A DNA stretch of 64,000 nt from a bacterium (GCA_022709425.1 JAKLIW010000003.1:102293-166292), one strand, 5' to 3'; positions 3,439-23,100 are shown, counted from the first letter of the stretch. Notes: generated from the sequence alone by a model not told the origin. Made by a program: numbers and translations.

Positions 3439-3813
3439 TCAGTCTTCATCGGGGAACATGACCGTGACGACGGCGCGTTCGTCGTCGCCGGGCCCGCACA
3501 GCGTCCAGAGATCGACCTTCTCGGGCTGATGCCCTCCACGGGGAATCCTGAGAATGGAGAAGTGCATCACCGGGAGGGGGCATTCCAACGCCGTGCGGTG
3601 CATGATCGTAAGCAGGTCCCAGAGACGCCCCGGTTCGTCCTGGTAGACCTGTTCGCTGGCGTTGTCCCACGCCACGCATTCCTCCCAGACTAGGCGGGTC
3701 AGAGCGACCGGGTAGATGAAGCCGGCCTGTTTGGCCATGTCGGATACATCGACGAGGACGCCGTCGGCGAGGGCCTGAGTGCGGGAATAGGCATGAATAA
3801 TGTCGTTGTTCAT
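3439..3813 (-). CDS. Hypothetical protein (124 aa)
   Basis: Clean ORF in the same operon (MNNDIIHAYSRTQALADGVLVDVSDMAKQAGFIYPVALTRLVWEE...). No motif was recognised. It resembles small proteins carried on plasmids and phages. Confidence 0.5.
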   Translation of the reverse strand: MNNDIIHAYSRTQALADGVLVDVSDMAKQAGFIYPVALTRLVWEECVAWDNASEQVYQDEPGRLWDLLTIMHRTALECPLPVMHFSILRIPRGGHQPEKVDLWTLCGPGDDERAVVTVMFPDED

Positions 3814-4513: not shown

Positions 4514-5395
4514 CTAGGGAGTTTCTCCCTTTTTTATGCCTTCCATTCTCTTACGGACGAGCCCATTTATTTCGGATTTTTTAAGGTTTTTTATAAAAAA
4601 GAGCGATTTTTCCTTCCCGTCCTTCTTATGTTCCGAGTGCTCAGTATACCACAACTTGCTGTATCTATTTAATATTCTCCACAGATGTGTCTTGCTGATC
4701 TGACCAGTCGAAGTAGGGCTCGATATCAAAACCGACTCTAAAATGTCCGTACTGCTCCATTCCTTGCTGCGCAATTTCTCCATCTTTCTGTATTTGTCAA
4801 CTGTTTCGCGAAGGATCATTTTCTCAAGTGAAAAGTGGTTGATCGTAAGAATCTCAGACATCCGCCTCTTTTGTTTTGACAATTCCAAAGACAGTTCTCT
4901 TTTCTTTTTTTTCTCTTCCTTAATTGTATTTCTGTGCCGTGAAACTATTCTTTCTGTGGGAATGATTGATATGGCCTTTTTGATGTCTTTTATGGGTACG
5001 AGTCCTTTTTTGTGAAGGTATAGGATTGTATTGTAAAAAGTTGTCGTAATGTCATCGCACATTTTCTGACTGTTGTTACCGTCAAGAAGGGAATTGATCA
5101 TGCTTCTCGTTAATATATATTCGCTTGGGGTATTGTTTGATTTGCGTTCATTTATATCAAGGCATTTGAACATATCATGTAAGAAATTATAGGATATGTT
5201 CATTATGCTCTGATCCAACTTAGAAGTTCTAGAGTATAGTTGGAAATGTTCACTGTTAATAATGACCAAAGTAAGCTTTTCTCCGATGAACGGCGTAAAC
5301 GCAATGCCGGCACGAAACCCATCCGTTACAGTTCCCACAGAAGAAATTATTCCTTCCTTTTGATAACGACAGGGCTCCATCATGTTTCTCCTCAC
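4514..5395 (-). CDS. Hypothetical protein (293 aa) encoded in a strongly AT-rich, low-GC segment. It is translationally coupled to the upstream WYL regulator.
   Basis: There is a 4-nt overlap with the stop of the WYL gene. GC is far below the window average and the protein is K/E/S-rich. No family was recognised. Confidence 0.6.
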   Translation of the reverse strand: MRRNMMEPCRYQKEGIISSVGTVTDGFRAGIAFTPFIGEKLTLVIINSEHFQLYSRTSKLDQSIMNISYNFLHDMFKCLDINERKSNNTPSEYILTRSMINSLLDGNNSQKMCDDITTTFYNTILYLHKKGLVPIKDIKKAISIIPTERIVSRHRNTIKEEKKKKRELSLELSKQKRRMSEILTINHFSLEKMILRETVDKYRKMEKLRSKEWSSTDILESVLISSPTSTGQISKTHLWRILNRYSKLWYTEHSEHKKDGKEKSLFFIKNLKKSEINGLVRKRMEGIKKGETP

Positions 5396-6342
5396 TTTTG
5401 ATTGAAAAGGTTATACGCAGTCCTTAGTCTGTTCAACCAGTACTTCCTATATTCCTTCGGTGCCGTGATTTCGGCGTGCGGAGTGAAGCCGAGGACCATG
5501 TAGGTGATCTCGATGGGATCGGCGACGGGTAGAGTCAGTTCGATGCACGGCTTGCCGGCGCAGGTCGTCTCGATCATCCGCTGCTTCGGATGCCATTCGC
5601 GGTCGCGGACGATATGCAGGATCGGCTCATGGAACCGTATCGTCACCTCCTGCGCCTCGGGCAACTTGAAGATGCCGTAGCCCTCCTCAAGGTACTTCTT
5701 GAGCAGCCGCTCGTCGAGTTCATGCTCGAACGGCTCGCCGGTGGCCATGATCTCGATGACGCGCGACAGGAGGAAGGTCCGGACCTCTTTCGAGGCGCGG
5801 CACCACGCGAGGAGATACCACTTCCCGGAGTAGTTCAGCAGATGCCACGGTTCGACGAACCGTTTCGACTGTTCCCCGGCCGCGTTCTGGTAGATGAGGC
5901 CGAGCGCCGTCGAGGAGCGCATCGCGTCGAGCACCTGTTTGACGATGCCGGGACGGAACCGTTCGTGGTCGGCGAGCTCGTAACTGATCCGGTCGAGGAT
6001 TGGGAGGTAATCCTTCAGGTACTTATCCTCGATGGAGTTCAGGAGCTCCTGCGATACGATCGGCATGAGCGAAAGGTTCTTGGCGATCCGCTGGACGAGC
6101 ACATAGAACAGCAGCATTTTCTCGTCGGCGTAATCGAAGAGGTCGTACGGCTTGGTATAGTAGTAGCCGTTCTGCTCTCGCGAGTATTCGATGGGCGCCT
6201 GCATCTCGGCCCGCATGTGGGCGATATCGCGCTTCACCTGCCGTTCGCATACCTCCAGTTCGGTAACCAGTTGTGCGAGCGATACGGTCCTCGACCGCTT
6301 GAGCGCCTGATGGATCAGATAGATGCGATGCGTGTTCGACAT
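5392..6342 (-). CDS. WYL-domain transcriptional regulator (HTH-WYL-WCX architecture, BrxR/CapW/PafBC-like)
   Basis: N-terminal DeoR-like HTH (IYLIHQALKRSRTVSLAQLVTELEVCERQVKRDI). Central WYL signature (NYSGKWYLLAWCRASKEVRTFLLSRV). C-terminal WCX-like extension. Length 316 aa. Confidence 0.8.
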   Translation of the reverse strand: MSNTHRIYLIHQALKRSRTVSLAQLVTELEVCERQVKRDIAHMRAEMQAPIEYSREQNGYYYTKPYDLFDYADEKMLLFYVLVQRIAKNLSLMPIVSQELLNSIEDKYLKDYLPILDRISYELADHERFRPGIVKQVLDAMRSSTALGLIYQNAAGEQSKRFVEPWHLLNYSGKWYLLAWCRASKEVRTFLLSRVIEIMATGEPFEHELDERLLKKYLEEGYGIFKLPEAQEVTIRFHEPILHIVRDREWHPKQRMIETTCAGKPCIELTLPVADPIEITYMVLGFTPHAEITAPKEYRKYWLNRLRTAYNLFNQK

Positions 6343-6454
6343 GGGCCCCTCCCAGGGTACAGATAAAAAGGAGTATCGCGTTTCTCTCCGATTTTGTCAA
6401 GTTGCGGGACAGCCCTTGTCACACCGGGTGTGCTAGAGTGAAAAACGACGAATA

Positions 6455-8113
6455 ATGGCTACGGAGGATCCGATGCAGACCGTCTTCGATCCTATGAACC
6501 TGGTTGAGGAAACGACCGTCGGTAAACGACTGTTCGTAGGGCGCGCCGCTCCCGGCCCGCAACAGCGTCTCCTGATGGAGCATTACGATCTGACGCACAT
6601 CGGCGCGGCAGTTTTCATGGTCGTCTTTGCGGCGCAGTTGGAAGAACGGCAGGAGAGCCTCACCGACATCGCGCAGCGCCACAACATCTCGGGGCCCCGC
6701 TACCGGACGCTCCTCAACGAATACTTCATGCTCGTGAAGAAGAAGCTCATCGTTCCCACCCCGTACCTGAAAAACGCCTCGCCTCTCTGCTGCGGCGTTG
6801 AGGCATCGGTCATGAAGGGGCTGATGCAGGGGGAACTGGGCGGAGAACCGTTCGATCCGGCCGAACCCTTTTCGATCATACAGTCGTTTTCCGAACTGTG
6901 GCAGCAACTCGACGACAAGGAGCTAACGGCCCGCCAGTTTCACAACGAGGGGAAGGAGCTCATCAAGCGGATGACCCCCGATAACCGCCTGCGGGAACTC
7001 GTCGCACCCTATCGTTTCACCGAACAGGTCATGATCATTGTCGCGGCGATAGACCATATCAACGCCCAGCGCAGCGGCGTCGACCTGCGCGAGTTCGCCA
7101 AGAACTTCTTCGCGGTGCTCCGTGACCGTGCCGCCTTCCTGCGGGACATTTCGCAGGGAACGGTTGAGGTCGTCAAGTCGGGACTCATCGTCCTCAACGA
7201 CCGCGGCGACGATCCCTTCTCGCGGTCGCCTGAATTCACCCTCTCCCTGAAAATGCGCTCGCAGCTTTTCGGCGTACAGAAGACCGGCCGCAAGGAGAAA
7301 CTCAACATCCCCGGCATCTTTTCGCACCGCTCGTGGCGCGATAAACAGCCCGAACTCTACTTCGACGACCGGCTTGCCGCCGAACTCGGCACCGTCGCTC
7401 GTGCCCTTTCCCGTTCCACCGGCGGCCGGCGGCTGTTCTCCAAACGGCTCCGGGAACGCGGTATGCCGACCGGTTTCACCGCCCTGTTTCACGGCGCCCC
7501 CGGCACCGGCAAGACAGCGTCGGTCCACGAACTGGCCCGGATGGTCAAACGCGATATCCTGCAGGTCGAGATGTCGGCCGTCCGCGACAAGTGGGTTGGG
7601 GAATCGGAGAAACGGACCCGCGCGATCTTCACCGAATACCGCACCGTCGCCGGATCGCTACCGGCCTGTCCCATCCTTCTCCTCAACGAGGCCGACGCTC
7701 TTCTCACCCGTCGCATGGATGCGCGGACCTCGGTCGAAACGATGAACAACACTATGCAGAACATCCTCCTCGAAGAGCTGGAAAAGTTCGAGGGGATCCT
7801 CGTCGCGACCACCAACCTCACCGGGATGCTCGACGACGCTTTCAGCCGCCGCTTCCTTTATAAACTGGAATTTCCGAACCCGACCCCGTCGATCCGCGCC
7901 CGGATCTGGCGCTCGAAACTGCCGGAACTGACTGGCGATGAGGCCGACACGCTCGCGGTCCATTCGCTCTCAGGCGGCGAGATAGAGAATGTGGCGCGCC
8001 GTTACATCGTCGACAGCCTCTTCAGCGGCAAGCCCGACCTCGACCGGCTCGAAGCTCTCTGCAGGGAAGAGTCGTCGCTGAAGAAAGGTATTGGAAGAAA
8101 GGTGGGGTTCTAA
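6455..8113 (+). CDS. AAA+ ATPase (classical clade, FtsH/CbbX-like module) with a ~330-aa N-terminal domain of unknown function
   Basis: Walker A GAPGTGKT. The VGESEK motif. Sensor-1 VATTNL. An RRF arginine-finger region. Walker B reads LLLNEAD (Asn in place of Asp). Confidence 0.8.
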   Translation: MATEDPMQTVFDPMNLVEETTVGKRLFVGRAAPGPQQRLLMEHYDLTHIGAAVFMVVFAAQLEERQESLTDIAQRHNISGPRYRTLLNEYFMLVKKKLIVPTPYLKNASPLCCGVEASVMKGLMQGELGGEPFDPAEPFSIIQSFSELWQQLDDKELTARQFHNEGKELIKRMTPDNRLRELVAPYRFTEQVMIIVAAIDHINAQRSGVDLREFAKNFFAVLRDRAAFLRDISQGTVEVVKSGLIVLNDRGDDPFSRSPEFTLSLKMRSQLFGVQKTGRKEKLNIPGIFSHRSWRDKQPELYFDDRLAAELGTVARALSRSTGGRRLFSKRLRERGMPTGFTALFHGAPGTGKTASVHELARMVKRDILQVEMSAVRDKWVGESEKRTRAIFTEYRTVAGSLPACPILLLNEADALLTRRMDARTSVETMNNTMQNILLEELEKFEGILVATTNLTGMLDDAFSRRFLYKLEFPNPTPSIRARIWRSKLPELTGDEADTLAVHSLSGGEIENVARRYIVDSLFSGKPDLDRLEALCREESSLKKGIGRKVGF

Positions 8114-8503
8114 ATGAACCAAGAAACGGCAATAACTCTCCGTGTCGAACCCTCCTTTGACGATCATCTCGAGGTGTTCGTAGAAATCCAAGCCGCCGGT
8201 GGAGAAGGACGCCTGACGGTCATCCGTGAAGGTTTTCGCGACCCACGGAAAGTCAAATGTCGATTGTCAGGAAAGGATGCCGATCACATAAGACGATTGC
8301 TTGATGGCCTGTGCATCAGCGGGGTGTCGCCTGCAATGATGGGGCTCGATGGCACCACCTACTCCCTGCGGGTCAACTCCTATCCTGTTATGTTGGAACT
8401 TGCGTGGTGGGTCAGCCCACCGACTTCCTGGGTCGGGGTGACCGCTCTGGTGGATGCACTTCGCGCGTTGGCGGGAGAATGCACAGATATCACTGACCGT
8501 TAA
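8114..8503 (+). CDS. Hypothetical protein (129 aa), co-operonic with the AAA+ ATPase
   Basis: Its start abuts the AAA gene stop. No motif was recognised. Confidence 0.5.
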   Translation: MNQETAITLRVEPSFDDHLEVFVEIQAAGGEGRLTVIREGFRDPRKVKCRLSGKDADHIRRLLDGLCISGVSPAMMGLDGTTYSLRVNSYPVMLELAWWVSPPTSWVGVTALVDALRALAGECTDITDR

Positions 8504-8515
8504 AAAGAGGTATTC

Positions 8516-9103
8516 ATGCCCGTTCCCATCACGATAACGAAGATACCGTTCTTCGCCGCAGCGGACATCCCCGGGTTTGTGCTGAAGGGTTTCGTTTCGC
8601 TTCTCATCGGACCGCTGGGCGAGGAGCGTTCATCGCTTGCCCGCACCATCGCGGCGGATTGGATAGAGGCGGGCATTCCGACGCTCTATCTGCAGGCCGG
8701 CGCCGAATCGAGGTTCTCATTCAGCGATATCGCGATGCAATGCGCGATGTACGAACGGAAATGCGGTTCGCCGCTCGGCGGACTGGTCATCGACTGCTGG
8801 GAGGAGGCCGCCTCGGAGCGTTACTTCAATTCACACTTCCTCGACATGCGGCTGGCGTTCCTAAAACTCAAGGTGTTCGCCTTCGAGCGGCAGATGCGGG
8901 TGCTCCTCGTGGGGCTCGACCGGTCCAAGCCGGGCGATCCGCCACGGCCGCGCCCGTTCCTTCCTTTCATGGCGTACGAGGCAAAGACGGTGATGGCGAT
9001 GGGAAAGGATGCCGCCGGAAAACCGCAGGCTACCGTCTGGCAGGGACAGATGAGGAGGTGGGAGAAGGGGCTAACCGTATGCTTATCTTTGGCGCAAGGC
9101 TAA
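8516..9103 (+). CDS. Hypothetical protein with a degenerate RecA/KaiC-like P-loop (GPLGEERSS)
   Basis: 195 aa. The segment VSLLIGPLGEERSSLARTIAADWIEAGIPTLYLQAG resembles an inactivated Walker A context. Confidence 0.45.
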   Translation: MPVPITITKIPFFAAADIPGFVLKGFVSLLIGPLGEERSSLARTIAADWIEAGIPTLYLQAGAESRFSFSDIAMQCAMYERKCGSPLGGLVIDCWEEAASERYFNSHFLDMRLAFLKLKVFAFERQMRVLLVGLDRSKPGDPPRPRPFLPFMAYEAKTVMAMGKDAAGKPQATVWQGQMRRWEKGLTVCLSLAQG

Positions 9104-10493: not shown

Positions 10494-10572
10494 CAGTCCA
10501 TATAAGGAAAATGGATTTCGCCGGCGGGCTTAGTTATACTGACCGGTCTCGAACACCGGGGGAGGAAAACAC

Positions 10573-11607
10573 ATGGCCAGATCGATCAGCCTTGACAACC
10601 AGCTTAAGCGGGTAGAGATCAACTCATTCGTCGTCGAGAACGAACTAATCCACGGTTACTTCAGCGGCGTGCCGGAGGCTGATCGGGAGGAACGACTTTT
10701 CAAGGCGCTTTATATTGGTGTCCTCGCCCTCATGGAGGAGCGCCTCGGAGCCTTTCTCGCCAAGACGAAGAACGAACTAGGCACCGAACTCGAATACCTG
10801 AAGATCCTCTTTGACATGAAGAAGTTCACTTACGACAAAACGACCGGAAAGGGCAAACTCGCGGAGCGCGACATCTTTGACTTCCTTACCGGCTACCTGA
10901 AAAAAAAGAATATCGCCGATACCGTCACCCTGACCGGCGACAAGGCGGGTGACCTGCCGAGGAATAAGACGGGCGATATCGTCTGCGACATTGCCGACAA
11001 CGGCGGGAAGCGGATCGCCATCGAGTGCAAATTTGACAAGGGGGTTGCGCTGGGCGACAGCACCGCGGTCAACATCACCCAGAAACGCGCCGATACTGCG
11101 TGGAGCCAATTGCTTGAAGCGCAGGTGAACCGCGGCGCCGACATTTCCCTCATCGTGTTCGACAAGGGAACCGCCAGTGCTTCAATAGTGAAGGCCTGCG
11201 ACGGCGTCATATTCCTTCCCGAAGTCGGGTTCGTCGTTGTGATAGATTCCCAGAAGGATGACTACACCAACCTCGCTATCGCCTATCTGCTGGCGCGCGA
11301 CATCGCCATTCATGCAAAGCCGGTCGAGCTGGACAAGGACACCCTCGCCGCACTCGTCAACCGTATTGTGACCGAGATGCGAGATTTCTTATCGATACGG
11401 GCATTGGTTGAGGCGAACATCGAGAACAACCGCGAGATCCTCAAGAAGATGCAGAAGGGGCTCCTGACCGTAGAGTTCACGGCCGAGTACCTGAGCCAGT
11501 TTCTTCAAAGCGGCATCATGACCAGAAAGGATTTCCTTGATTTCACCCGGGCCGAAGATATCCGGACGAAGTACAAAGCGATCGAACAGGGACTGGAAAA
11601 GATTTGA
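10573..11607 (+). CDS. PD-(D/E)xK-fold nuclease-like protein (restriction-endonuclease-like), 344 aa
   Basis: Motif GDIVCDIADNGGKRIAIECKFDKG gives D...(n)...E-C-K, the spacing of a PD-(D/E)xK catalytic core. It stands alone with no adjacent methyltransferase. Confidence 0.6.
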   Translation: MARSISLDNQLKRVEINSFVVENELIHGYFSGVPEADREERLFKALYIGVLALMEERLGAFLAKTKNELGTELEYLKILFDMKKFTYDKTTGKGKLAERDIFDFLTGYLKKKNIADTVTLTGDKAGDLPRNKTGDIVCDIADNGGKRIAIECKFDKGVALGDSTAVNITQKRADTAWSQLLEAQVNRGADISLIVFDKGTASASIVKACDGVIFLPEVGFVVVIDSQKDDYTNLAIAYLLARDIAIHAKPVELDKDTLAALVNRIVTEMRDFLSIRALVEANIENNREILKKMQKGLLTVEFTAEYLSQFLQSGIMTRKDFLDFTRAEDIRTKYKAIEQGLEKI

Positions 11608-11706
11608 GCATGAGGTGCTTGCAAAGCCTGTCCGGACGCCGTCCGGCACGACCAGAAACTCTTCTTAGCGGAAGTTTGCTCGTTCACAGAAGGGATTGCT
11701 TTTAAT

Positions 11707-11865
11707 ATGACTACAAAAAACTATACCGCCACCATCCGGACAAAAGCCGATGGCCACCCCGTTAAGATAACGGTGCAGGCCAACGATGTCCATCAGGCCC
11801 GCTCCATCATCGAGATGCGGCCCGAGTTTAAACAGTTTGTCTCCATGCCCAAAGAGTTGAAATAG
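11707..11865 (+). CDS. Small hypothetical protein (52 aa, MTTKNYTATIRTKADGHPVKITVQANDVHQARSIIEMRPEFKQFVSMPKELK)
   Basis: An ATG-to-TAG frame that is not in the ORF track because it is under 60 aa. It lies between two defence-like genes. Confidence 0.3.
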   Translation: MTTKNYTATIRTKADGHPVKITVQANDVHQARSIIEMRPEFKQFVSMPKELK

Positions 11866-11900
11866 AAATAGCCGCGAGGTTATGACATGACACTCATCAA

Positions 11901-12482
11901 ATGTCCCGATTGATGAAGGTAAAGGGTATGAAAAAAGGTGACAACAGCTGGATGTATGCCAACACACCATCGAATGATGCTCGCTTTCTCTTGGGGCAAC
12001 AGCTTAAAAAAACAGGACCAACCCTCATTTGTATAGGGGTAAATCCCAGCACTGCCGAACCAGATGATTTGGATCCTACTCTAGCGCGGGTTCGTAATAG
12101 GGCGGATGACCGAGATTATGCACGATGGGTCATGTTGAATTTATATCCGCAGCGCGCCACCGATCCGAATGATATGGATGAGGTCTGCAATATAGGTTGG
12201 CGCAGGGAAAACCTGCAGAAGATCGCGGCTCTGATAGACAGCCTTCTGCTCAAAGGGCCAATAGATATTTGGTGTGCATGGGGGAACCTCATCGACAAGA
12301 GGCCCTACTTGAGATCCTGCTTGAGAGAGATAGTTGAACTCCTGTTACATCGACCCGGACTTCATTTTCTCACTTTTGGTAAAGAGACAAAAAAAGGCAA
12401 TCCGCACCACCCACTTTTTCTAAAGAGAAAACTGAAGGCCAAAAAACTATCAAGGGAAGATATCAATCGTTTTTTGATATAA
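11901..12482 (+). CDS. DUF1643-family protein
   Basis: ICIGVNPSTAEPDDLDPTLARVRN...WVMLNLYPQRATDPNDM matches the NPSTA / DPT / NL..R.TdP hallmark blocks of DUF1643 as I remember them. Confidence 0.6.
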   Translation: MSRLMKVKGMKKGDNSWMYANTPSNDARFLLGQQLKKTGPTLICIGVNPSTAEPDDLDPTLARVRNRADDRDYARWVMLNLYPQRATDPNDMDEVCNIGWRRENLQKIAALIDSLLLKGPIDIWCAWGNLIDKRPYLRSCLREIVELLLHRPGLHFLTFGKETKKGNPHHPLFLKRKLKAKKLSREDINRFLI

Positions 12483-12503
12483 ACAACAGGTCGGGAGAAC
12501 AGG

Positions 12504-13583
12504 ATGGGTTTGCCGGCAATCAGAGGAGCGATTCTTGAAGAAATAGTTTTATACCTGCTCGCAAGAGTCGGGTATCGAGAAATTATTGCTGGTGAAGAGG
12601 GAACGCGGAGGGGACATTCCGGTCTTGAGGTGGAGGGGCGTGGGGAATGGCATCAAATTGATGCTTTTGCCGCCTTCGATCATTCCCCAGCTTTTATGTA
12701 TCCACTGCGGCTTATGGTGGAAGCGAAGTGTTATGTTGCTTCCCGTCCAGTTGGAATAGAAACTGTGCGAAATGCAGTCGGTGTATTGAAAGATATTTCA
12801 GAAAACTACTTTACACCTCGACTATATTCCAATCACCGGGATTCAATAAAGTTTCAACAATACAACTATCATGCAGCTATTTTCTCTACCAGCGGATTCA
12901 CGCGAGGCGCAGAACGTTATGCTATAGCACACCAAATATTTCTCATACAATATAAGGATGTTCATCTTTTTCACCCCATTTCGCAGGCATTGTTGGGCAT
13001 TGGCAACAAACATTTCAAGAAAACAATGCTTTCCAGAAATAACATTACAAATGTCTCGCGAGAGGCGGTTCGCCGATTACTTCGGGGAGATCCCTTAACG
13101 GATGTTATGCCTTTTACGCGATCTGGACTCAAATATCTCAGAGAGCAAATATTGAATCCATTGCACGCTATTGGTGGGTCATACTTCGGAATGTTGCAAG
13201 GCAAGTGGCCAATCCATCTGCTTTCAGAAACTCCCTTGCCCTTAGCTCTTTTTAGAGAGCAGGATGTGGTCAAGTGCAAGATATACGGACGCGAAAGCAA
13301 GCATTGGTCCTTTGTGCCTGTTGATCAAAGAGAGGGGAGCGAGAACTGGTTTCGTCTAGAATTTGATTTGCCTGAAGAAGTCTTAGAGCTTGTCTGGTCG
13401 GCTCAAGGCGATAGAATTGCAATTGCACAACTAAAAATAGAGCATTTCTCTTTTATATGTGTTTCAGGAATTATCGGTAATGTGCGCCGGCAGGTTATCC
13501 TGGAACTAGATGAAGGCTGGATAAATGATTACATAAACAAAATGCGCGAAGCTGCCAACAAGCAAAAGACAAGGCACCCATGA
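12504..13583 (+). CDS. Mrr-like restriction endonuclease-fold protein (PD-(D/E)xK)
   Basis: N-terminal GAILEEIVLYLLARVGYREI resembles Mrr_cat. HQIDAF...LMVEAKCY gives a D / E-A-K core. The start is 22 nt after the DUF1643 stop. Confidence 0.6.
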   Translation: MGLPAIRGAILEEIVLYLLARVGYREIIAGEEGTRRGHSGLEVEGRGEWHQIDAFAAFDHSPAFMYPLRLMVEAKCYVASRPVGIETVRNAVGVLKDISENYFTPRLYSNHRDSIKFQQYNYHAAIFSTSGFTRGAERYAIAHQIFLIQYKDVHLFHPISQALLGIGNKHFKKTMLSRNNITNVSREAVRRLLRGDPLTDVMPFTRSGLKYLREQILNPLHAIGGSYFGMLQGKWPIHLLSETPLPLALFREQDVVKCKIYGRESKHWSFVPVDQREGSENWFRLEFDLPEEVLELVWSAQGDRIAIAQLKIEHFSFICVSGIIGNVRRQVILELDEGWINDYINKMREAANKQKTRHP

Positions 13584-13647
13584 ACGAAACCGAAACCAGA
13601 ACCAAGCATATTGATCCTAAACAAATCCATGAGAGAATTATTGTTTA

Positions 13648-14574
13648 ATGTGGTGTTCAGAGGAGGGCTCTGAAATGTCAAGAAACTTAAGAAAAGAGCG
13701 GGCATGGTTGTTAACGGTGGCTCGGACTGTTGCCGTCAGACTCAAACAGTATAGCGATGGAACAAAAATACGTATAAGAAAGCCCACCCGTGTAACAGAA
13801 TCAAACACCGATGGTTGGTACGCTATCATTGGCGATATGGGGAAGAATCAACCGCGGCTTGAAATATGGCTCGATAGGTTTTCAGGGTATCCTGAGCGTA
13901 AACTATATGCTTGCTTTCGATCAGCAGAGAAAGAGCCGTTGATGAACCTCACCAAGCATGTCTCGCGGAACCTATGGCCGGTCCGTGTAATTACCATGAA
14001 AGATACCAACGGTGAAGAAAATGATTGTATTCTTACCGACCGTCTCAAGCGCGCTGAATTCAATGTCCCCATCCTCGAAAAATATGAAGAAGAGTGCGTA
14101 TACTACTTTGGCTTCTATGATCCAACTCGAAAATCTGAGGACAAAATAAACTCATATTTCTGTGATCGAGCCGTGGCTTTTTTCGAGGATGTGGCTCGTG
14201 CTCAGCCTAAGGCAACAGAGCAGGACGAGCAGCGAGAGGTTTATCCTCAACTGGAAAATCGACAACAAGTGGCATCGCATATCAGGCGCGAAAGAAGTCG
14301 CTACCTGTCCACAGAAAGGAAAATCCTTGACGATTACCAATGCCAGGTATGCGGTATGCGATTCGAGGAAGTTTACGGTGAGGCACTGGGGGCAAGATAT
14401 GCCGAAGCGCATCATTTGGTGCCACTGGGCAAATTGGAGGGTGCCGTCAAAACAAAAATCGAAGACCTGCGCACTGTTTGTGCTAACTGTCATCGAATGC
14501 TACACCGCATGGATGGTAAGCGAGATGACATTGCAAAGCTTAAAGCAACCCTTGATAAACATCGGAAGAAATAG
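13648..14574 (+). CDS. HNH endonuclease-domain protein with an unknown N-terminal domain
   Basis: C-terminal CQVCGMRFEE...AEAHHLVPLGKLEGAVKTKIEDLRTVCANCHRMLH is a canonical HNH (C-x2-C ... HH ... C-x2-C-H). Confidence 0.8.
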   Translation: MWCSEEGSEMSRNLRKERAWLLTVARTVAVRLKQYSDGTKIRIRKPTRVTESNTDGWYAIIGDMGKNQPRLEIWLDRFSGYPERKLYACFRSAEKEPLMNLTKHVSRNLWPVRVITMKDTNGEENDCILTDRLKRAEFNVPILEKYEEECVYYFGFYDPTRKSEDKINSYFCDRAVAFFEDVARAQPKATEQDEQREVYPQLENRQQVASHIRRERSRYLSTERKILDDYQCQVCGMRFEEVYGEALGARYAEAHHLVPLGKLEGAVKTKIEDLRTVCANCHRMLHRMDGKRDDIAKLKATLDKHRKK

Positions 14575-14609: not shown

Positions 14610-14641
14610 GTAATAGGAGAAAAATGGATTTTGTTATAATG
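14610..14641 (+). promoter_or_regulatory. Candidate sigma-70 extended -10 promoter (tgtTATAAT) upstream of the methyltransferase operon
   Basis: TGnTATAAT lies at about 14632-14640, followed by a GAGGG RBS 7 nt before the ATG at 14686. Confidence 0.3.
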
Positions 14642-14685: not shown

Positions 14686-16752
14686 ATGGTAAAAGAGCAG
14701 CATCAACCAGAGACCAGAGAAAAAAGCACGAATAGGAAAAAGAGTCTATCCGCTCTTAATACTATTCCAGCAGGGTACACCCTGGATTATATTTCCAGTA
14801 AACCAATCAAAGAGACTGCCAAGGAACAAGTTCGTCAGCGGGTGGTGCGTGCCCTGATTCACGAATATGGTTTTTCTCCAGAAGATATGGAGTTGGGTTT
14901 TTCCATTGGCGGTCGCAAGAAAGTTGATGTGGCCATTTTTCACCATGGCAAAGAACACACACTCGAAAATCTCGGCCGTGCCGTGATTTGCCGCCAGGAG
15001 CCAAATATTGGCAAGAACGCTGCCCGGATCCGGGACTTTGAACAGGCCGCAAATGACCTCGAAGAGATCGAGACTATTATGAGAGAGGTCGATGCGGTTC
15101 AGTATGGCCTGTGGACCAACGGTCTGGAATTCTTTTTTATCGAGAAAGAGCGGCAGCGCTTCGAAACCAAGTGCAACCCCATCGGTGACTGGCCGATGGC
15201 CGAAGAGTCAGTCGGTACCAAGGAGGTTATCTCCGATGCCCATACTCGCGTCGCCGACACAGAAATGCTCAAGATCACCTTCCGGCGTTGCCACAACTTC
15301 ATCCACGGCAACGAAGGCATGCCCAAGGACGCCGCATTCTGGCAGTTCCTTTATCTGATCTTCTGCAAAATGCATGACGAAAACCTGCGCGCCAAGCAGC
15401 GTCAGGCTTGGCAGTGCCGCTTCTGGGCTGGTCCCAAGGAGCAGTTCGAGGCCCAAGGCCGCAAGGCAATCCGCGTACGCATCGAGGATCTCTTCACCGA
15501 GGTCAAGAAGCAGTACAAGAACATTTTCCGAGGCAATGAGGAGATAGCCCTCTCCGACCGGGCACTGGCCTTTATCGTCTCTGAACTAGCCAAATACGAT
15601 TTCACCCGCACAGATGTCGATGCCAAGGGCGTGGCCTATCAGGAATTGGTGGGCGTCAACTTGCGCGGCGACCGTGGTCAGTATTTCACCCCCCGGGGCG
15701 TCGTGAAACTGGTAATTGAAATGCTCGATCCCCAGGAAAACGAAACTTTGCTGGACCCTGCCTGTGGCACCGGCGGTTTCCTGGTAGCCACATTGGGCCA
15801 TATGCTGAAGAAATTCCGCATAGAACAAAACACTCAGGTTGGGAAGGAGAGCACGACCGATTTTTTGAACGTTCACGAGCGGTTGAAAGAGTTTGCCGCT
15901 ACCAATGTGTTCGGGGCCGACTTTGACCCGTTTCTGATCCGAGCCGCGCAGATGAACATGGTTCTGGCAGGTGATGGTCGTGGGCATCTTTACAACATCA
16001 ATTCTCTAGAATTTCCACTAGGGCACCTAGCTGATTTGCCCTCTGCCAAGAAGGACCTCCCCTTTGGCTCTGTTGATCTCATTGCTACTAATCCACCGTT
16101 CGGTTCAGATATTCCAATTACCGATAGACACATCTTGGAGCAATATGAATTAGCTCACGAATGGAAGTCTGATGGAGAGGGTGGTTTTCGCAACACAGGC
16201 AGATTGCAGAGTAGCATGGCCCCTGAGATACTTTTTATTGAACGCTGCATTAAATGGATCAAGCCCGGTAAGGGTCGGATGGGCATTGTCCTGCCTGACG
16301 GGGTTCTCGGCAACCCAGCAGCGGAATACATCCGTTGGTGGATTATGCGCGAAACCCAAGTACTTGCCTCCGTTGATTTGCCGGTAGAATCCTTTATCGC
16401 CGAGGCCAATGTTAACATCCTCACCAGCCTGTTGTTCCTGCGCCGCAAGAGTGAAGAAGAAAAACGTACCGAGGCCATGGGCGCCATTGAAGAATATCCA
16501 GTCTTCATGGCCGTGGCCGACAAGGTTGGCTTCGACCGTCGCGGCAACAAACTCTACAAGCGCACTCCTGACGGCGAAGAAATCGTCGAAGCCAAGCAGC
16601 ATGTTGAGCGTATCCGCATCGGCGGACGCTTTGTGGAACGTACCCTGACTCGCAGTGAAAAGATTGAGGATAACGATCTGCCGGTTATCGCTGAAAAATA
16701 CCGAGAATTTATTAGGGAGCAAAAAGATGGGCGAAGAAAACGACATCATTGA
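14686..16752 (+). CDS. N6-adenine DNA methyltransferase (gamma-class, HsdM-like) fused to an N-terminal HSDR_N-type PD-(D/E)xK-like domain whose catalytic motif is degenerate
   Basis: Motif I LDPACGTGGFLV. Motif IV NPPFG. The N-terminus shows the HSDR_N pattern (RALIHEYGF...VDVAIF...AVICRQEP...GLWTNGLEFFF), but the canonical IE.K is replaced by ICRQ. Confidence 0.85.
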   Translation: MVKEQHQPETREKSTNRKKSLSALNTIPAGYTLDYISSKPIKETAKEQVRQRVVRALIHEYGFSPEDMELGFSIGGRKKVDVAIFHHGKEHTLENLGRAVICRQEPNIGKNAARIRDFEQAANDLEEIETIMREVDAVQYGLWTNGLEFFFIEKERQRFETKCNPIGDWPMAEESVGTKEVISDAHTRVADTEMLKITFRRCHNFIHGNEGMPKDAAFWQFLYLIFCKMHDENLRAKQRQAWQCRFWAGPKEQFEAQGRKAIRVRIEDLFTEVKKQYKNIFRGNEEIALSDRALAFIVSELAKYDFTRTDVDAKGVAYQELVGVNLRGDRGQYFTPRGVVKLVIEMLDPQENETLLDPACGTGGFLVATLGHMLKKFRIEQNTQVGKESTTDFLNVHERLKEFAATNVFGADFDPFLIRAAQMNMVLAGDGRGHLYNINSLEFPLGHLADLPSAKKDLPFGSVDLIATNPPFGSDIPITDRHILEQYELAHEWKSDGEGGFRNTGRLQSSMAPEILFIERCIKWIKPGKGRMGIVLPDGVLGNPAAEYIRWWIMRETQVLASVDLPVESFIAEANVNILTSLLFLRRKSEEEKRTEAMGAIEEYPVFMAVADKVGFDRRGNKLYKRTPDGEEIVEAKQHVERIRIGGRFVERTLTRSEKIEDNDLPVIAEKYREFIREQKDGRRKRHH

Positions 16753-18772
16753 AACCCTAGAGGAAGAACTCCTCGAAAAAGAGGATGTTGACGATGAAAG
16801 CGGTCCGGAGAAGTTCTTTATTGACATTCTGACCGGCAACAAAGAAAGCTCCTCGGCCAAGAAACTGCTAGTGCAGAAGGTCCTGCGCCAGCTCATCGAG
16901 AGTTACGGATTTGACCGAAATGATATTGAGGTTGATTACAAACATCGCATCAGGGGCGGCAAGCCGGCGAAAATTGATATTGTTATTTTTCGCCCCGATG
17001 CCGAACACACCAACGACAACCTGCAGCGAATCATCATCTGTAAGAATCAGAAGAAGCACGATAAGCTCCGCTCCGTTACCGAGGCCGACGCCGACCTGCG
17101 TCAGCTCAAGGAGCTGCTCGAGCTGATCCCCGGCACGACCCTGGGTATGTGGACCAATGGACACGAGGAATTCCTGTTCCAGGTCGAGCGCACCCGTTTC
17201 GAGGTCCGAACCAAACCTCTAGGCGTTTGGCCCATACCCGGAGAGGCAACAGTCGACCTTGAGCGCACAGGAGGAGTCATTCAGGTAAGCGCTGATGCGG
17301 AAGGCCTCGAAGATGCTCTTTCCCGTTGCTTCCTCTACCTTTCCAGCAATCAAAACATTGGCTTGGGTGACAGGGCTGGTTTTCAGCAGCTTGCTTTAAT
17401 TCTATTTTCGAAGATCTATGACGAAACGAAGCCTGCTGGTGAGAGACTGTTTTGGATCAAAGGGGAAGAGCCTTTTACACCAGAAGGTCAAGCGGCCATT
17501 CAACAGAGGATCGTTTCTTGTATAGAGGGGGCAATTGCATGGAAACCCAACCTCCTTGAACAAGGCTGGACTCTGAACCTAAGACCAAGCCAAACGGCTC
17601 GCGTGGTCATGGAGCTGGCTCGTTACTCTTTGAGCGAAACACTTCCTCGTTACCGAACCGGAGCTTTCAGATCAGTTGCTCGGTATGTAATGGACGGCAA
17701 AGATGGCCGCTATCCTACGCCACTCAATGTGGCCGAAATGGCGGTGGAGATGCTCGACCCGCAACCCGGTGAACGCATCATGGACTGCTCCAGCGGTACC
17801 GGCACTTTCTTGGCCATGGCCGCTGCGCACATCTTCAAGAAGAAACTGGCCGCCAGTGGCGCCACGCCTGAAGAGGCCACCAACAAACAGATCCGTCAGG
17901 CGCAAAACGAAACCGCCACCTGGGCGGCAAGCAATGCCCTGGGCTGTGACATTGATCCCTTTCTGGCCGTCGCCAGCCGCATGAATCTGCTGTTTACCAC
18001 CGGCAATCCCGGCCGAGTGTTCCGCATAGATGCCCGGACCTTCCCTGATGGAGATCAAGAGGGCATTGAAGTAGCTCGGCAATGCATGCCCCTCGGTAGC
18101 ATGGATGTGGTTTTGCTTAATCCATGGTTCTCCACCAAAAACACGGTGACCGATTCATTCATCCTAGAACGCTATGGCCTGGGCAATAACTGGGAGCGCG
18201 ATGAGGAAGGTGGATTCCGCAATACGGGCAATCTGAACACCGGTGGCGTACCACCCGAGGTTCTTTTTATCGAACGTGCCCTGCAGTGGGTGAAACCGGG
18301 CACCGGTCGTATCGCTATTTTATTGCCGGACGGGATCTTGGGTAACCCCGGAGATGAATACGTACGCTGGTGGATTCTGCGTCACTGCGAGGTGTTGGCC
18401 AGCGTCGACTTGCCCGTTGAACCCTTCAAGGTCACCGTCAAGGAGTATGGCCTGACGCCAGCTTTGCCTAGCCTACTGGTGCTGCGCCGTCGCAGCCAGG
18501 AAGAGCTGATCAACACAGAGTACCCGGAATACAAGGTCTTCATGGCCGTGGTGGATCGGGCCGGTGTGGATGCCCGAGGTAATCTGCTTTTCCAGCGAGC
18601 CCCCGATGGTGAAGAACTGGTTTTCGATGAGGAAGTGATCGAGCGGGTTCGTGAAGGTGGCGAAGTGAAAATCCGCCGCACCACGCGCCGCAACCGTCGC
18701 ATTCATGACGAACTGCCGCTGGTGGCAGAGAAATACAAGGAATTCCGCGCAACCGGCGAGGTGATGTTATGA
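16727..18772 (+). CDS. Paralogous HSDR_N-fused N6A-methyltransferase-like protein with an atypical motif IV (NPWF) and a degenerate nuclease motif (ICKN)
   Basis: Motif I MDCSSGTGTFLA. Motif IV reads NPWFSTKN instead of NPPF/Y. HSDR_N-like N-terminus (LRQLIESYGF...IDIVIF...RIIICKNQ...GMWTNGHEEFLF). Start set at the Met with an AGGGAG RBS; it overlaps the upstream gene. Confidence 0.8.
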   Translation: MGEENDIIETLEEELLEKEDVDDESGPEKFFIDILTGNKESSSAKKLLVQKVLRQLIESYGFDRNDIEVDYKHRIRGGKPAKIDIVIFRPDAEHTNDNLQRIIICKNQKKHDKLRSVTEADADLRQLKELLELIPGTTLGMWTNGHEEFLFQVERTRFEVRTKPLGVWPIPGEATVDLERTGGVIQVSADAEGLEDALSRCFLYLSSNQNIGLGDRAGFQQLALILFSKIYDETKPAGERLFWIKGEEPFTPEGQAAIQQRIVSCIEGAIAWKPNLLEQGWTLNLRPSQTARVVMELARYSLSETLPRYRTGAFRSVARYVMDGKDGRYPTPLNVAEMAVEMLDPQPGERIMDCSSGTGTFLAMAAAHIFKKKLAASGATPEEATNKQIRQAQNETATWAASNALGCDIDPFLAVASRMNLLFTTGNPGRVFRIDARTFPDGDQEGIEVARQCMPLGSMDVVLLNPWFSTKNTVTDSFILERYGLGNNWERDEEGGFRNTGNLNTGGVPPEVLFIERALQWVKPGTGRIAILLPDGILGNPGDEYVRWWILRHCEVLASVDLPVEPFKVTVKEYGLTPALPSLLVLRRRSQEELINTEYPEYKVFMAVVDRAGVDARGNLLFQRAPDGEELVFDEEVIERVREGGEVKIRRTTRRNRRIHDELPLVAEKYKEFRATGEVML

Positions 18773-20181
18773 GTAGAAAATTTCAATGCAAAGCGATACC
18801 AAGCACTTGGCTTGAGCACAATGGTCGCCGCCTTGATTGTGGTCCCTATATGTCCGGGGCTATAGAAGCCCGCGAACTTCTAAAAAGGCACGAAACAGAG
18901 GCTCTCCAATCTCTAACGGCGGGGTATAACGGAGGAATTTATAACGGGCCACAATTCGTTAGGAACTACGTTGAAGATCCAGCTTTCGGAGTCCCTTTTT
19001 TAACGACTTCAACAATGCAGCAAAGCGATACGAGTGGCCTTCCTATGATTAGTCGAAAAGACGCACATTCATCCAAGTTGCGCTACTTAAAAGTTAATGA
19101 GGGAATGACGCTGATCACATGCTCAGGAAGCATAGGGAAAATGGCCTATGCAAGAAAGGACATGGAAAAAGCGTGGTCAAACCAAGACATCATGAAGGTT
19201 GTTGCAGATCGAGCCAAAATCCTCCCTGGATATCTCTATGCCTACCTTTCTAGTCGTTTTGGTGTTCCGATGGTAGTCTCAGGCACTTACGGGGCAATCA
19301 TCCAGCATATTGAGCCGCATCACATTTCAGACCTTCCTGTTCCACGTCTCAGCGAAATTGAGAATCAAGCACATGACCTGATTCAAGGAGCAGCGAACCT
19401 GAGGGTTGAGGCTGCCGAAATAATTGCGCAGATCAGCGCAGAGGTCGAGAGAAGATTCGATTTGTGGGATGAGTCATTATCTGACAAGGCGAGAATAGCA
19501 AGAAACGGTTTTTTAACAACGTCTACTGCTCTTGCAGAGTCGGGCCGCTTTGAAGCCACTTACCATGACGCGATCGCTGCAGCAATCGCTGACAGGGTTC
19601 AATCTCAACCAAATACCCGAATAGACATTGTATGTAAAGTTAAGAAGCCAGGTATGTTCAAAAGGATCATGGTTGATGGCCCCGAACACGGCTATGGCTT
19701 TGTCCCTGGTTCTGAGTTATTTACATTGGCACCAAAGCCCGTGTACTGGGTCTCGCCGAGAACTCCGAATATCGAAGATTGTGTGATGTCTCCGTATTGG
19801 ATTCTCATCCAAGCGTTTGGGCAGCTTGGCGGATTGATTGGCCGATGTATTATGACTACTCCAATGCTGGAGGGTTGTGCCGCCACTGATCTTCAGATTC
19901 AACTCAGATTCGACAATAAGTTAGACGCTGGTTATGTGTTCGCGATTCTTTACAGTCGACCTGGTTATAAACTAATTACTAGAACTCCCATCGGTGGATC
20001 AATTCCGCACATTCATCCGAAAGACATTGAGTCACTTTGTATCCCTTGGCCAGAAGCAGATGTAAGACATGCTATTGGTGAAAGGATTATTGAGGCTTGG
20101 GATAAGCGTGAAGAAGCTGTTCGATTAGAGGATGAAGCCCGCTCCCTAGTCGAACGCACCATCGAGGAGGGAGGTCACTAA
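18769..20181 (+). CDS. HsdS-like specificity subunit with two target-recognition domains
   Basis: 470 aa. Two repeats of the TRD-end conserved block (GAIIQHIEPHHISDLPVPRLSEIENQAHDLIQ and GGSIPHIHPKDIESLCIPWPEADVRHAIGERIIEAW), the latter coiled-coil-like. Lower GC than the flanks. ATGA overlap with the upstream MTase. Confidence 0.7.
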   Translation: MSRKFQCKAIPSTWLEHNGRRLDCGPYMSGAIEARELLKRHETEALQSLTAGYNGGIYNGPQFVRNYVEDPAFGVPFLTTSTMQQSDTSGLPMISRKDAHSSKLRYLKVNEGMTLITCSGSIGKMAYARKDMEKAWSNQDIMKVVADRAKILPGYLYAYLSSRFGVPMVVSGTYGAIIQHIEPHHISDLPVPRLSEIENQAHDLIQGAANLRVEAAEIIAQISAEVERRFDLWDESLSDKARIARNGFLTTSTALAESGRFEATYHDAIAAAIADRVQSQPNTRIDIVCKVKKPGMFKRIMVDGPEHGYGFVPGSELFTLAPKPVYWVSPRTPNIEDCVMSPYWILIQAFGQLGGLIGRCIMTTPMLEGCAATDLQIQLRFDNKLDAGYVFAILYSRPGYKLITRTPIGGSIPHIHPKDIESLCIPWPEADVRHAIGERIIEAWDKREEAVRLEDEARSLVERTIEEGGH

Positions 20182-23100
20182 TGGCGAAGGTCATACCCAT
20201 CGGGCAACCCGCGAACGAATCTGAACGCCAGGCCATTGGTTTCCTTCGGGACCATTTGCCCGATGGATGGCTGATCTTCCACAACTTCGAGATGCGCCAG
20301 GGAGAGGAAGTGTTCGAAATTGACATTGCCATCCTCGCGCCTCACGCGGTGTACCTAGTGGATGTCAAGGGGACGCGGGGCAACATCGATGTGTATGGCT
20401 CCAAGTGGTACCCCGAAGGGCGGCAGCCTTTTCATTCGCCACTCGCTAAGTTGCGCAGCCACGCCAAGACCATGGCCACCATCATCCGCGAGAGCAATAC
20501 CGGCTTGATTGAGTTGCGCAAGGCCCATGTGCATGCTGCCGTGCTGCTCACCGCCGATGACGCTGTCGTGTTCGACCAGGCAGGCATAGACAGCCCAGAT
20601 GTGACCGACTTCAAACATTGCCTGAAATACTTCCGTGACCAAAGCCGCATCCCCGACAACCGTCTGGATAACATCACCCGCTTCCACTCCCAGATTGCCA
20701 AAGCGATTACCGGCAAAGCAAAGCCCAAGAGCGCTGCCCTGGTGTTCCGCGACTGGCAGGTTGAAGAGAAGCTCGGCGGCACCGACCGTTACACCGAATA
20801 TCGTGCCAAGCACAACCTGCTGGGCAAGAGCGGCGGCATGGCCCGCCTGCGCGTCTACCAAGCCGACCCCTATCAGGATGAGACCGCTCGCAAGGAAGAG
20901 TTCAAGAAAATCAGTAACGCATATCGTGCTGTCGCACATATGCCGACCCACGCCAACGTGCTGGCGGTGAAAGATCTCTTCAAGAATGAGGACGAGGATA
21001 AGATCGTACTGGTAACCGAGGACTTGCCCGGACAAGCTCTGCGCCTGCATATCAACAAGGCCTCCCTAGCGCTGACCTTCGATCAAAAACTACAAGTGAT
21101 GCGCGATGTATTGTCGGCGCTGGACCACGCGCATCGGCATGAGGTGATACACCGCAATCTCACCCCGGACGCCATTCTGGTTACCAAGGGTGGGCAAACA
21201 AGAGTTGTCGATTTTGATTATGCTCGTATTGGAAACAATCAAACACTTACTATTGCGCCCCTTATTATTGAGGATTTGGCAAAAAAAGAGTTTGAGAAAT
21301 ACCAAGCTCCAGAATGCGTGAGGTCTCCTGAGAAGGCTAGTATTGCATCAGATATCTATTCTTCAGGAGTTGTTTTTTATGAGCTACTAACTGGCGAACT
21401 ACCTTTTGAAAGTGTCGACCAGATGATAGAGGCCGCCGGCAAGTTCCCGGTGAACCCTTCAGAGCATAAGCCGGACCTGCCCAAAGGGATTGACGAGTGG
21501 ATACAGAAGTTCTGCGAGTTCGACCCCGAGGAACGGCACACCAACGCGGCCATTGCCCGCAAGGCCCTGGATGATCTGATTCTGCCCGAGGCCAAGAACG
21601 ACTCTGCTCCGGATGTTGGCGGCCCGGCCGCGGTTGTGCCTCAGCTCCCGGATGACTTGATGAACCTGCCGCAGAATTTCATACTGGCAGATCGCTTCCG
21701 CATTCAGAAAAAGCTGGGCAGTGGCGGCTTTGGGGTTGTCTACAAGGTATTTGATTCGCTAGGCGATGTGGTGCGGGTCATCAAACTGGTAACCAAAGAC
21801 CGCAACAGCGTATACGAACGACTACGCCGCGAATATAAAACCTTGATTAATCTGCCAGACCATCCGCGCGTAGCAAAGGTGATCTGGGCTGATCGCATGA
21901 ACGATACCCCTCAAACGCCCTACATAGTCTTTGAGTATCGGGAAGGTTTAGATGTTTCCGATCTGATCGATGCTAAAGCACTATCGGCGGAGGATGCCGC
22001 AAATATCGTTCGCGAGGCTGCTGAAGGATTGGCTCATCTCCACAAGCATGGTGTTTATCACCAGGATATCAAGCCGTCTAATCTGTTGTGGACTGACAAT
22101 GGTGTTTGCATCATCGATTTTAATATCGCAGTTTCCGAGAATGAAGAGCATCAAGGAGGCGGTGGTACGCGCCGCTATCTGCCGCCAGATTACGATTACT
22201 CCTCCAGGCCGGACACTTCTGATTGGATAGATCGCGACCTCTATGCCTTAGGTATTTCATTCTACGAGTGTCTGACCGGAACATATCCTTTCGACAGCCA
22301 CACACCACCGATCAAGGTGCAACCTAAGGACCCCAAGCAGTTCAAGGGTTGTGCCGACCTCAGTTCAACGCTTATAAATGTGTTGGTGAAGATGATTGCG
22401 CCGGAACGCAAGAATCGATTCGCCTCGGCGGAAGAGTTTTTGACCGCCCTGGCCGAGGTCAAGCGTCTGCGCTCGGTACTGACCACCGGAGAGGTTGGCG
22501 CCGGACACAAGGTCTTGTCCAAGCTAGGTTTCGAGCCGATTAAGCCCAACACCAATCCCTTTGTCACTCACCTGCTGACTCTCTACAGCCAGAGCCAGGT
22601 GTCTAACGCGGGCACCCGCGGTCTCGACGAAGTTGGCAAGGCCACCTACGTGCCGACCTATCTGGACGAAAAACTCAAGCCCGCGCTGCTCAAGGGAGAG
22701 TTCCGCCTGGTCATCATCAGCGGTAACGCCGGTGACGGTAAGACGGCTTTTATTCAGCAGTTCGAGGCTTTTGCCGAGAGCAAAGGCGCACAGATGCAGC
22801 GTGGCGCGAATGGGGCTGTTTTTCAGCTTAAGGGGTATACCTACCAGAGCAACTACGACGGTAGCCAGGATGAAGGCGACGAGCGCAACGACGCCGTGTT
22901 GCAGAAGTTCTTTGCCCCCTTCGCGGGCAAGGACGATTTCGGATGGCCCCAGAATCAGACCCGCCTGATCGCCATCAATGAAGGACGATTGGTCGATTTC
23001 TTTCTGGAACATGAAGAGGAGTTCCCTCTGCTCACCAAGCAGCTCCAGCAGGGGTTGGCCGGAGCCGCTCCGGAAGGGGGTATCGCAGTCATCAACCTCA

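Follow-up and report, generated by a model that had tools for sequence, protein, structure and literature searches.

Defence genes are known to be embedded within type I restriction-modification (R-M), BREX and DISARM operons, an arrangement that has been exploited as "guilt by embedding", and the nuclease PrrC occurs almost exclusively in this way within type I R-M systems (bioRxiv 10.1101/2024.01.29.577857). Complementary type IV systems that are embedded in the same manner include TgvAB, RloF and BrxU (PMC11411939). TgvAB is encoded between hsdS and hsdR in the type I R-M operon of VPI-2 in V. cholerae, RloF in the hsd loci of C. jejuni and BrxU beside BREX; all are GmrSD-type (DUF262/DUF1524) nucleases without a methylase of their own that are found in or near hsdM/hsdS-type genes. 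MADS (mad1 to mad8) is a further experimentally demonstrated anti-phage system, for which the detection model requires MAD6, MAD7 and MAD8 (bioRxiv 10.1101/2023.03.30.534895). Here we consider a stretch of 64,000 nucleotides of a bacterial metagenome contig (GCA_022709425.1, JAKLIW010000003.1:102293-166292; hereafter the window), in which five successive genes, encoding a 344-amino-acid (aa) PD-(D/E)xK nuclease-like protein, a 52-aa open reading frame (ORF), a DUF1643 protein, an Mrr-like nuclease and a McrA-like HNH nuclease, are located directly upstream of a MADS operon (Table 1). Two further contigs (L001 and L002) carry the same genes identically.

The Mrr-like and HNH genes of this array resemble the embedded type IV systems in that they encode nucleases that are not accompanied by a methylase of their own and lie close to hsdM/hsdS-type genes, and their homologues occupy the same position between hsdS and hsdR as tgvAB. 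They differ in their domains, which are Mrr_cat with a new C-terminal domain in the one case and a McrA-like HNH with a new N-terminal domain in the other, and in their neighbour, which is MADS and not type I R-M. We consider it probable that the array, part of a defence island, is a patchwork in which autonomous single-gene modules acquired separately have come together, that its Mrr-like and HNH nucleases depend on modified DNA, and that the 344-aa protein belongs to an island of WYL and AAA genes.

Composition of the array

All five genes are intact, the catalytic folds and motifs are present, and the ORFs have exactly the limits given in the initial annotation of this DNA, except that the ORF of the HNH gene, which does open at the annotated position, most likely starts 27 nucleotides further on because of a GAGGAGG ribosome-binding site and homologues of about 295 aa. 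The intergenic gaps are 99, 35, 21 and 91 nucleotides within the array and 111 nucleotides between the HNH gene and mad2a, the first gene of the MADS operon.

The initial annotation treated the five genes as a cluster and noted that scattering of the genes in related genomes would speak against it. Among approximately 130 related loci, no two array genes were found together outside the identical contigs; the comparison covered 25 species-level loci for the Mrr-like family, 80 metagenome loci for the HNH family, 5 for the 344-aa family and 8 for DUF1643. The genes are thus dispersed in related genomes, which refutes the array as a unit and rules out its interpretation as one conserved system. 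The G+C content at third codon positions (GC3) is 0.77-0.79 in the upstream AAA ATPase gene and an adjacent 195-aa ORF, 0.74 in the 344-aa gene and 0.70 in the 52-aa ORF, and it is 0.48, 0.40 and 0.46 in the DUF1643, Mrr-like and HNH genes, respectively. On the basis of GC3 and of the synteny described below, the array consists of at least two blocks: block A, comprising the 344-aa gene and possibly the 52-aa ORF, and block B, comprising the DUF1643, Mrr-like and HNH genes.

Mrr-like and HNH nucleases

The Mrr-like protein matches Mrr_cat (PF04471) over residues 10-97 with E = 1.6e-5. A D...EAK core had been noted initially, and D53 and E73-A74-K75 are indeed invariant in an alignment of 30 family members. 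In the AlphaFold 2 (AF2) model, which has a predicted local distance difference test score (pLDDT) of 87 and a predicted template modelling score (pTM) of 0.85, the catalytic domain structurally resembles AF1548, AspBHI and MspJI. Although Mrr_cat with its D...EAK motif is common to this protein and to Mrr, MspJI and AspBHI, the domain order is reversed relative to the classical arrangement of Mrr_N followed by the catalytic domain, which here occupies residues 10-150 at the N-terminus. Pfam gives no match to the Mrr_N winged helix, and an SRA-like reader is also lacking. The conserved C-terminal domain shows weak beta-barrel matches at most, has no winged-helix structural match and no clear structural relative. 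Sequence and profile searches of the PDB returned nothing for either the Mrr-like or the 344-aa family.

The HNH protein was initially described as carrying a canonical HNH domain, and the family alignment (30 sequences) bears this out, as the zinc-finger pattern CxxC..HH..N..CxxCH is invariant throughout. The domain (PF01844, E = 1.9e-7, residues 232-287) is a C-terminal beta-beta-alpha-metal HNH with a zinc-binding pair of CxxC motifs and also matches the PADLOC profile mREase_IV (E = 3e-4). Its closest relatives in both sequence and fold are EcoKMcrA and TagI: a profile search of the PDB recovers EcoKMcrA (6ghc, E = 1.7e-4; sequence match to residues 221-290), and in the AF2 model, which is of moderate confidence (pLDDT 74.6), it is the HNH domain that aligns with EcoKMcrA and TagI, over 87-99 residues. 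The architecture of an N-terminal domain followed by a C-terminal HNH and the size of about 290-300 aa are also common to these enzymes. They differ in their N-terminal domains, since the conserved alpha/beta domain formed by residues 1-176 of the window protein is of unassigned fold and has no detectable similarity to its counterparts in McrA or TagI.

Neither the Mrr-like nor the HNH protein contains a recognisable modified-base reader of a known type, and for this reason a type IV mechanism is proposed from the relatives of the catalytic domains and from genomic context. Of the three origins entertained in the initial annotation for the array genes, that of independent mini-defence systems or type IV-like nucleases is the best supported: each family stands alone in many unrelated contexts, the HNH protein is nearest to EcoKMcrA and TagI, and the Mrr-like protein resembles AF1548, AspBHI and MspJI.

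Association with type I restriction-modification operons

Type I hsd genes are the sole recurrent neighbours of the Mrr-like family, being present at 8 of the 25 loci in several gene orders that include hsdR-Mrr-hsdM and Mrr-hsdM-x-hsdS; the typical slot is hsdM-hsdS-[X]-hsdR. Close homologues of the HNH protein have hsdS/M directly upstream in 11 of the 17 cases with enough upstream sequence, and hsdR downstream in 9 of 15. Members of a more distant HNH subclade are located just after hsdR. With an assumed background of 2% for genes beside hsd genes, the enrichment has a binomial p <1e-8. The nearest relatives on usable contigs, P0243 for the Mrr-like protein (61%) and P0121 for the HNH protein (65%), are both embedded. 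Both families are thus cargo of type I R-M systems in the sense of recurrent siting within hsdM/hsdS/hsdR operons. In the window itself the two genes adjoin the methylase/specificity module of MADS on its 5' side instead of being embedded in type I R-M. The statement in the initial annotation that none of the nucleases has a partner methyltransferase therefore holds inside the array, but two N6-methylase genes begin 111 nucleotides after the HNH gene, and the Mrr-like and HNH families are strongly linked to hsdM and hsdS elsewhere.

No hsd neighbours are present at 17 of the 25 Mrr-like loci and at approximately 35-40% of the informative HNH loci; such stand-alone genes adjoin unrelated housekeeping genes or defence genes (SIR2-HerA, PLD, C5-methylase). 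As both families are often found alone, we regard them as modules that are autonomous but strongly favour R-M operons.

In the conserved type I R-M family that hosts this cargo, hsdM genes share 70-84% identity across contigs, and the HsdR proteins carry an EcoEI_R_C domain. The hsdS-hsdR slot of this family often contains additional cargo, including DUF4357, ORFs of 302 and 162 aa, and extra sequence of 1-2.7 kb, for example at L005 6436-7981 and L132 7905-8786, and between the HNH gene and hsdR in L039 and L046.

We propose that the Mrr-like and HNH proteins would each act as a self-sufficient DNA endonuclease, with the substrate being picked by the conserved non-catalytic domain (N-terminal in HNH, C-terminal in Mrr-like). 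This substrate would most likely be DNA bearing a foreign modification, making both type IV-like enzymes, so that phages with hypermodified DNA that escape the neighbouring methylation-based defence would be caught, compare TgvAB in type I R-M and BrxU beside BREX. The choice of substrate, the function in defence and any co-transcription are what we infer, whereas the integrity of the genes, their catalytic folds and motifs, the distribution of the families, their embedding in R-M operons and their absence from other MADS loci are shown by the data.

The same operon position suggests another scheme. In EcoprrI, prrC stands between hsdS and hsdR, and homologues of the two window nucleases occupy the same hsdM-hsdS-[X]-hsdR slot, so that a common logic of backing up R-M is conceivable. 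The Mrr-like and HNH proteins would then be guards, latent DNA nucleases held by the methylase/specificity complex (HsdM2S, or here Mad2/Mad5) and freed when a phage anti-restriction protein such as Ocr, ArdA or Stp disables it, causing abortive infection. That neither protein has a recognisable modified-DNA reader domain is consistent with this, as is their position in the window, where they once more adjoin a methylase/specificity module. However, the loci without hsd genes counted above show that linkage to R-M is not obligate, and it follows from their number that cells must be able to tolerate and use the proteins when no partner is present. Moreover, the Mrr-like gene is embedded in several hsd orders, and in L033 about 2 kb of other sequence lies between it and the nearest hsd gene. 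PrrC, an ABC-ATPase-like RNA nuclease, is nearly always found embedded, whereas the window proteins have DNA-nuclease folds, are often stand-alone and possess no ATPase or sensor module comparable to the N-terminal domain of PrrC. On balance we regard a guard function as unlikely. A more general form of the proposal, in which the Mrr-like and HNH proteins are DNA-nuclease counterparts of PrrC that dock on HsdM/HsdS-type complexes, Mad2/Mad5 among them, and fire when an anti-restriction protein neutralises the complex, seems to us a little less probable still. If true, it would mean that a portable "tripwire" layer is common to different methylation-based defences, and the window would be the first case in which it is attached to MADS.

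Relationship to the MADS operon

The operon downstream of the array is a MADS variant with matches to mad2, mad5, mad6, mad7 and mad8 (Table 1). The two mad2 matches (PADLOC) have E = 3.7e-85 and 6.9e-50, and the second of the two methylase-like genes has a degenerate motif IV, NPWF as against NPPF in the first methylase, which suggests that it may be a non-catalytic paralogue. The mad1 helix-turn-helix (HTH) gene, mad3 (AAA) and mad4 are missing from the window operon, whereas MADS of Piscinibacter has HTH, AAA and mad4.

Table 1. Features of the window, with positions counted from its first nucleotide
Feature	Position	Strand	Basis and remarks
DUF6573 gene	~3439-3813	-	in island
WYL regulator	5392-6342	-	Pfam/PADLOC
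IetA-like AAA ATPase	6455-8113	+	Pfam/PADLOC
129-aa and 195-aa ORFs	within island module 5392-9103		beside WYL/AAA genes
344-aa PD-(D/E)xK nuclease-like protein	10573-11607	+	ORF; PDDEXK_15-like core ~residues 90-205, helical N- and C-terminal regions
52-aa small ORF	11707-11865	+	ORF; no Pfam, PADLOC, NCBIfam or PHROG match
DUF1643 protein, 193 aa	11901-12482	+	PF07799
Mrr-like nuclease, 359 aa	12504-13583	+	N-terminal Mrr_cat-type PD-(D/E)xK domain; conserved C-terminal domain ~200-357
McrA-like HNH nuclease, 299 aa from likely start	13675-14574 (ORF opens 13648, 308 aa)	+	HNH PF01844
mad2-like N6-methylase (mad2a)	14686-16752	+	PADLOC mad2
Second methylase-like gene	16727-18772	+	PADLOC mad2
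mad5 specificity subunit	18769-20181	+	PADLOC mad5 1e-31
mad6 NERD + kinase	20181-24335	+	PADLOC mad6 2e-120
mad7	24332-26008	+	PADLOC 3e-123; NCBIfam MAD7 E = 1.7e-198
mad8	26005-31467	+	PADLOC 5e-40; NCBIfam MAD8 E = 2.8e-69
Mu-type DDE transposase	40006-41541	-	rve + Mu-transpos_C_2; near distal end of lower-GC island

The initial annotation also raised the possibility that the array genes are components of this operon and suggested asking whether they travel with it in related genomes. They do not. None of the five array proteins has a PADLOC match to a mad profile, and the MADS operons of Piscinibacter, Hymenobacter and Bacteroides, which start with HTH-methylase or DUF6577-methylase, carry array genes upstream in none of the three cases. 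Conversely, MADS is present at none of the approximately 110 Mrr-like, HNH and 344-aa-family loci, nor at any of the 8 DUF1643 loci; one HNH locus (L071) shows a weak mad2a-like match. Thus MADS adjoins the array on the same strand, yet none of the array genes has a mad profile match or a copy in the three other MADS operons, which rules out MADS accessory genes as the leading explanation.

There is nevertheless a version of this idea in which the upstream nucleases are integral parts of this particular MADS variant, replacing mad1, mad3 and mad4 as DNA-cleaving effectors on one transcript with mad2 to mad8. The common strand, gaps of 21-111 nucleotides without a terminator-like site before mad2a, the lack of HTH, AAA and mad4 genes relative to Piscinibacter, and an 11-mer, AAAATGGATTT, that is common to the sequences upstream of the 344-aa gene and of mad2a (window 10507-10518 and 14620-14631) all fit such an arrangement. 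Against it stand the absence of mad profile matches and of array genes from the three other MADS loci, the absence of MADS from the family loci, the mosaic of GC3 values and a TATAAT box located in the gap preceding mad2a. Furthermore, the Hymenobacter and Bacteroides operons also lack mad3 and mad4, yet have no nucleases instead. We therefore consider integral membership in MADS very unlikely.

As to the signals in the gaps, promoter and terminator scans over the region from 10 to 15 kb found no more sites than in shuffled sequence. The shared 11-mer AAAATGGATTT may be the site of a common regulator or may be due to chance; for the 12-mer GAAAATGGATTT, allowing at most one mismatch, three matches were reached in 1 of 100 shuffles, which is weakly significant.

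The 344-aa nuclease and the WYL/AAA island

The 344-aa protein itself has no match in Pfam, PADLOC, NCBIfam or PHROGs. Its homologues match PDDEXK_15 (PF24608) weakly, scoring 17-29 bits where the cut-off is 27, with one sequence above it. The D...ECK core proposed initially is confirmed by an alignment of 30 homologues in which D135 and E151-C152-K153 are unchanged, and a catalytic triad within a predicted restriction-endonuclease-like core places the protein, as judged from sequence, in the PD-(D/E)xK superfamily. The family comprises 2587 clusters, mainly from Bacteroidota, with about 54% identity.

Homologues of the 344-aa protein stand last behind unrelated operons, namely SIR2-HerA-KTSC in L004, an OLD-type ATPase followed by a primase-helicase in L117, and a pair of 825- and 335-aa proteins in L118; in L003 the homologue is alone. 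In two of these Bacteroidota defence islands, KTSC-domain proteins of 69 aa are encoded upstream of the 344-aa homologue in the same operon (L004 9786-9995 and L117 5592-5801). The KTSC gene adjoins the homologue in L004; in L117 the two are separated by an OLD-type ATPase gene and a small WYL gene.

Upstream of the array, the window contains a module in which a WYL regulator and an IetA-like AAA ATPase are accompanied by ORFs of 129 and 195 aa. Three of its parts, namely WYL, a portion of AAA and the 195-aa ORF, are found again alongside the 344-aa nuclease in L003 (1-3343), an unrelated contig. By tblastx and blastn the similarity is 63% for WYL, 59% for the C-terminal part of AAA (in opposite orientation), approximately 40-48% for the 195-aa ORF and 73% for the 344-aa gene; past the latter L003 continues with housekeeping genes and without DUF1643, Mrr-like, HNH or MADS genes. 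The 344-aa nuclease of block A, perhaps with the 52-aa ORF, would accordingly form part of the upstream WYL/AAA-ATPase island, with the low-GC3 block B immediately preceding the methylase-methylase-specificity genes of MADS on their 5' side. The WYL/AAA/129-aa/195-aa module may represent a defence system of several genes, as yet uncharacterised, in which the 344-aa protein supplies the nuclease. The island also contains a DUF6573 gene, and a Mu-type DDE transposase lies near its distal end (Table 1). There are no tRNA genes anywhere in the window, so that neither border of the island is marked by one.

The DUF1643 protein and the 52-aa ORF

The DUF1643 domain (PF07799, E = 5e-30; phrog_3230, E = 1e-24) extends over residues 28-172 and so fills its protein. 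The N-terminal partner that the initial annotation had assigned to it is the product of a separate gene, the 52-aa ORF, and this ORF is ruled out as a partner of DUF1643, being missing beside the 8 other DUF1643 genes and from every other locus that was fetched. We regard the 52-aa ORF as probably encoding a real small protein. It has 9 relatives among 1.84 billion representatives, including proteins of 49-63 aa with about 50% identity, and the unit recurs as repeats within larger proteins (P0362, P0363 and P0368), for example as 8 stretches in a 512-aa protein. These tandem repeats suggest a small, independently folding repeat domain.

DUF1643 is a family of mobile-element genes. In tblastn searches it matched 49 phage and 21 plasmid records, the literature places it also in staphylococcal cassette chromosome (SCC) elements, and in two phages it is one or two genes away from a DNA ligase gene. 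A scan of viral contigs with the single DUF1643 protein yielded no relatives. On the Microbacterium plasmid pYJNG (L115 5449-5880) a DUF6573 gene adjoins DUF1643 among many small ORFs on one strand that are typical of plasmid leading regions. On the Lactococcus plasmid pUC073A (L116 1368-5522) a type I hsdR is followed by an 88-aa hypothetical gene and then by DUF1643; by tblastn the 88-aa product does not match the 52-aa ORF.

The invariant residues of DUF1643 are NPSTA, DxT, N80, R85, WG and PxHP, forming the motif series NPSTA / N-L-x-x-x-R / WG / HPxHP. This order resembles that of the uracil-DNA glycosylase (UDG) superfamily, with GINPG / KLVDRPT / ILG / NPSGLS in Mug and GQDPYH / LLLN / LWG / HPSPLS in Ung. 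When DUF1643 was compared with E. coli Mug and Ung by hhalign, the best local matches fell on the equivalent motifs with a probability of <1%, which is not significant, and there was no match to the PDB by sequence or profile. As a lead, DUF1643 may be a UDG-like DNA glycosylase, which could serve defence or be left over from a mobile element.

These properties of DUF1643 raise the question of whether the array serves defence at all. Selfish or mobile-element leftovers, such as homing-type nucleases and plasmid or phage leading-region genes (among them DUF1643, acting in DNA repair of the element or in counter-defence), might have gathered in a recombination hot spot. The abundance of DUF1643 in phages and plasmids and its proximity to DNA ligase in two phages agree with this, as do the plasmid on which DUF6573 is beside DUF1643, given that the window island also has a DUF6573 gene, the Mu-type transposase in the island, and the stand-alone Mrr-like genes that lie among housekeeping genes in some genomes. 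However, neither the Mrr-like nor the 344-aa protein has a PHROG match, and similarity of the HNH protein to phage families is confined to its HNH domain. The full lengths of the proteins, non-catalytic domains included, are 50-65% conserved across phyla, and the strong, specific link to R-M operons, SIR2-HerA, OLD and PLD is better explained by defence cargo. We accordingly rate an origin unrelated to defence as improbable, to much the same degree as integral membership in MADS.

Implications

The interpretation of the array as a patchwork of autonomous modules has several points to contend with. PADLOC v2 contains no model for three of the families, the 2% background used in assessing embedding is our own estimate, the embedding samples are small, and some of the metagenome loci in them are near-duplicates. 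In addition, the 111-nucleotide gap between the HNH gene and mad2a contains no terminator-like site; together with the single strand and the short gaps this makes co-transcription with MADS possible, and hence functional coupling. All of these weigh against our interpretation.

The nuclease families considered here are uncharacterised, yet their catalytic folds and the kind of genomic arrangement in which they occur are already known. As modules of a patchwork, three sizeable families that PADLOC v2 does not represent, with approximately 2600, 430 and 500 clusters (90% identity), would be added to the candidate single-gene defences. The capture of R-M cargo families beside MADS would extend "guilt by embedding" from type I R-M, BREX and DISARM to MADS. 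The N-terminal domain of the HNH protein and the C-terminal domain of the Mrr-like protein are candidate modification-sensing domains to be explored, and DUF1643, which is widespread in phages, plasmids and SCC elements, offers a lead as a possible DNA glycosylase-like enzyme.

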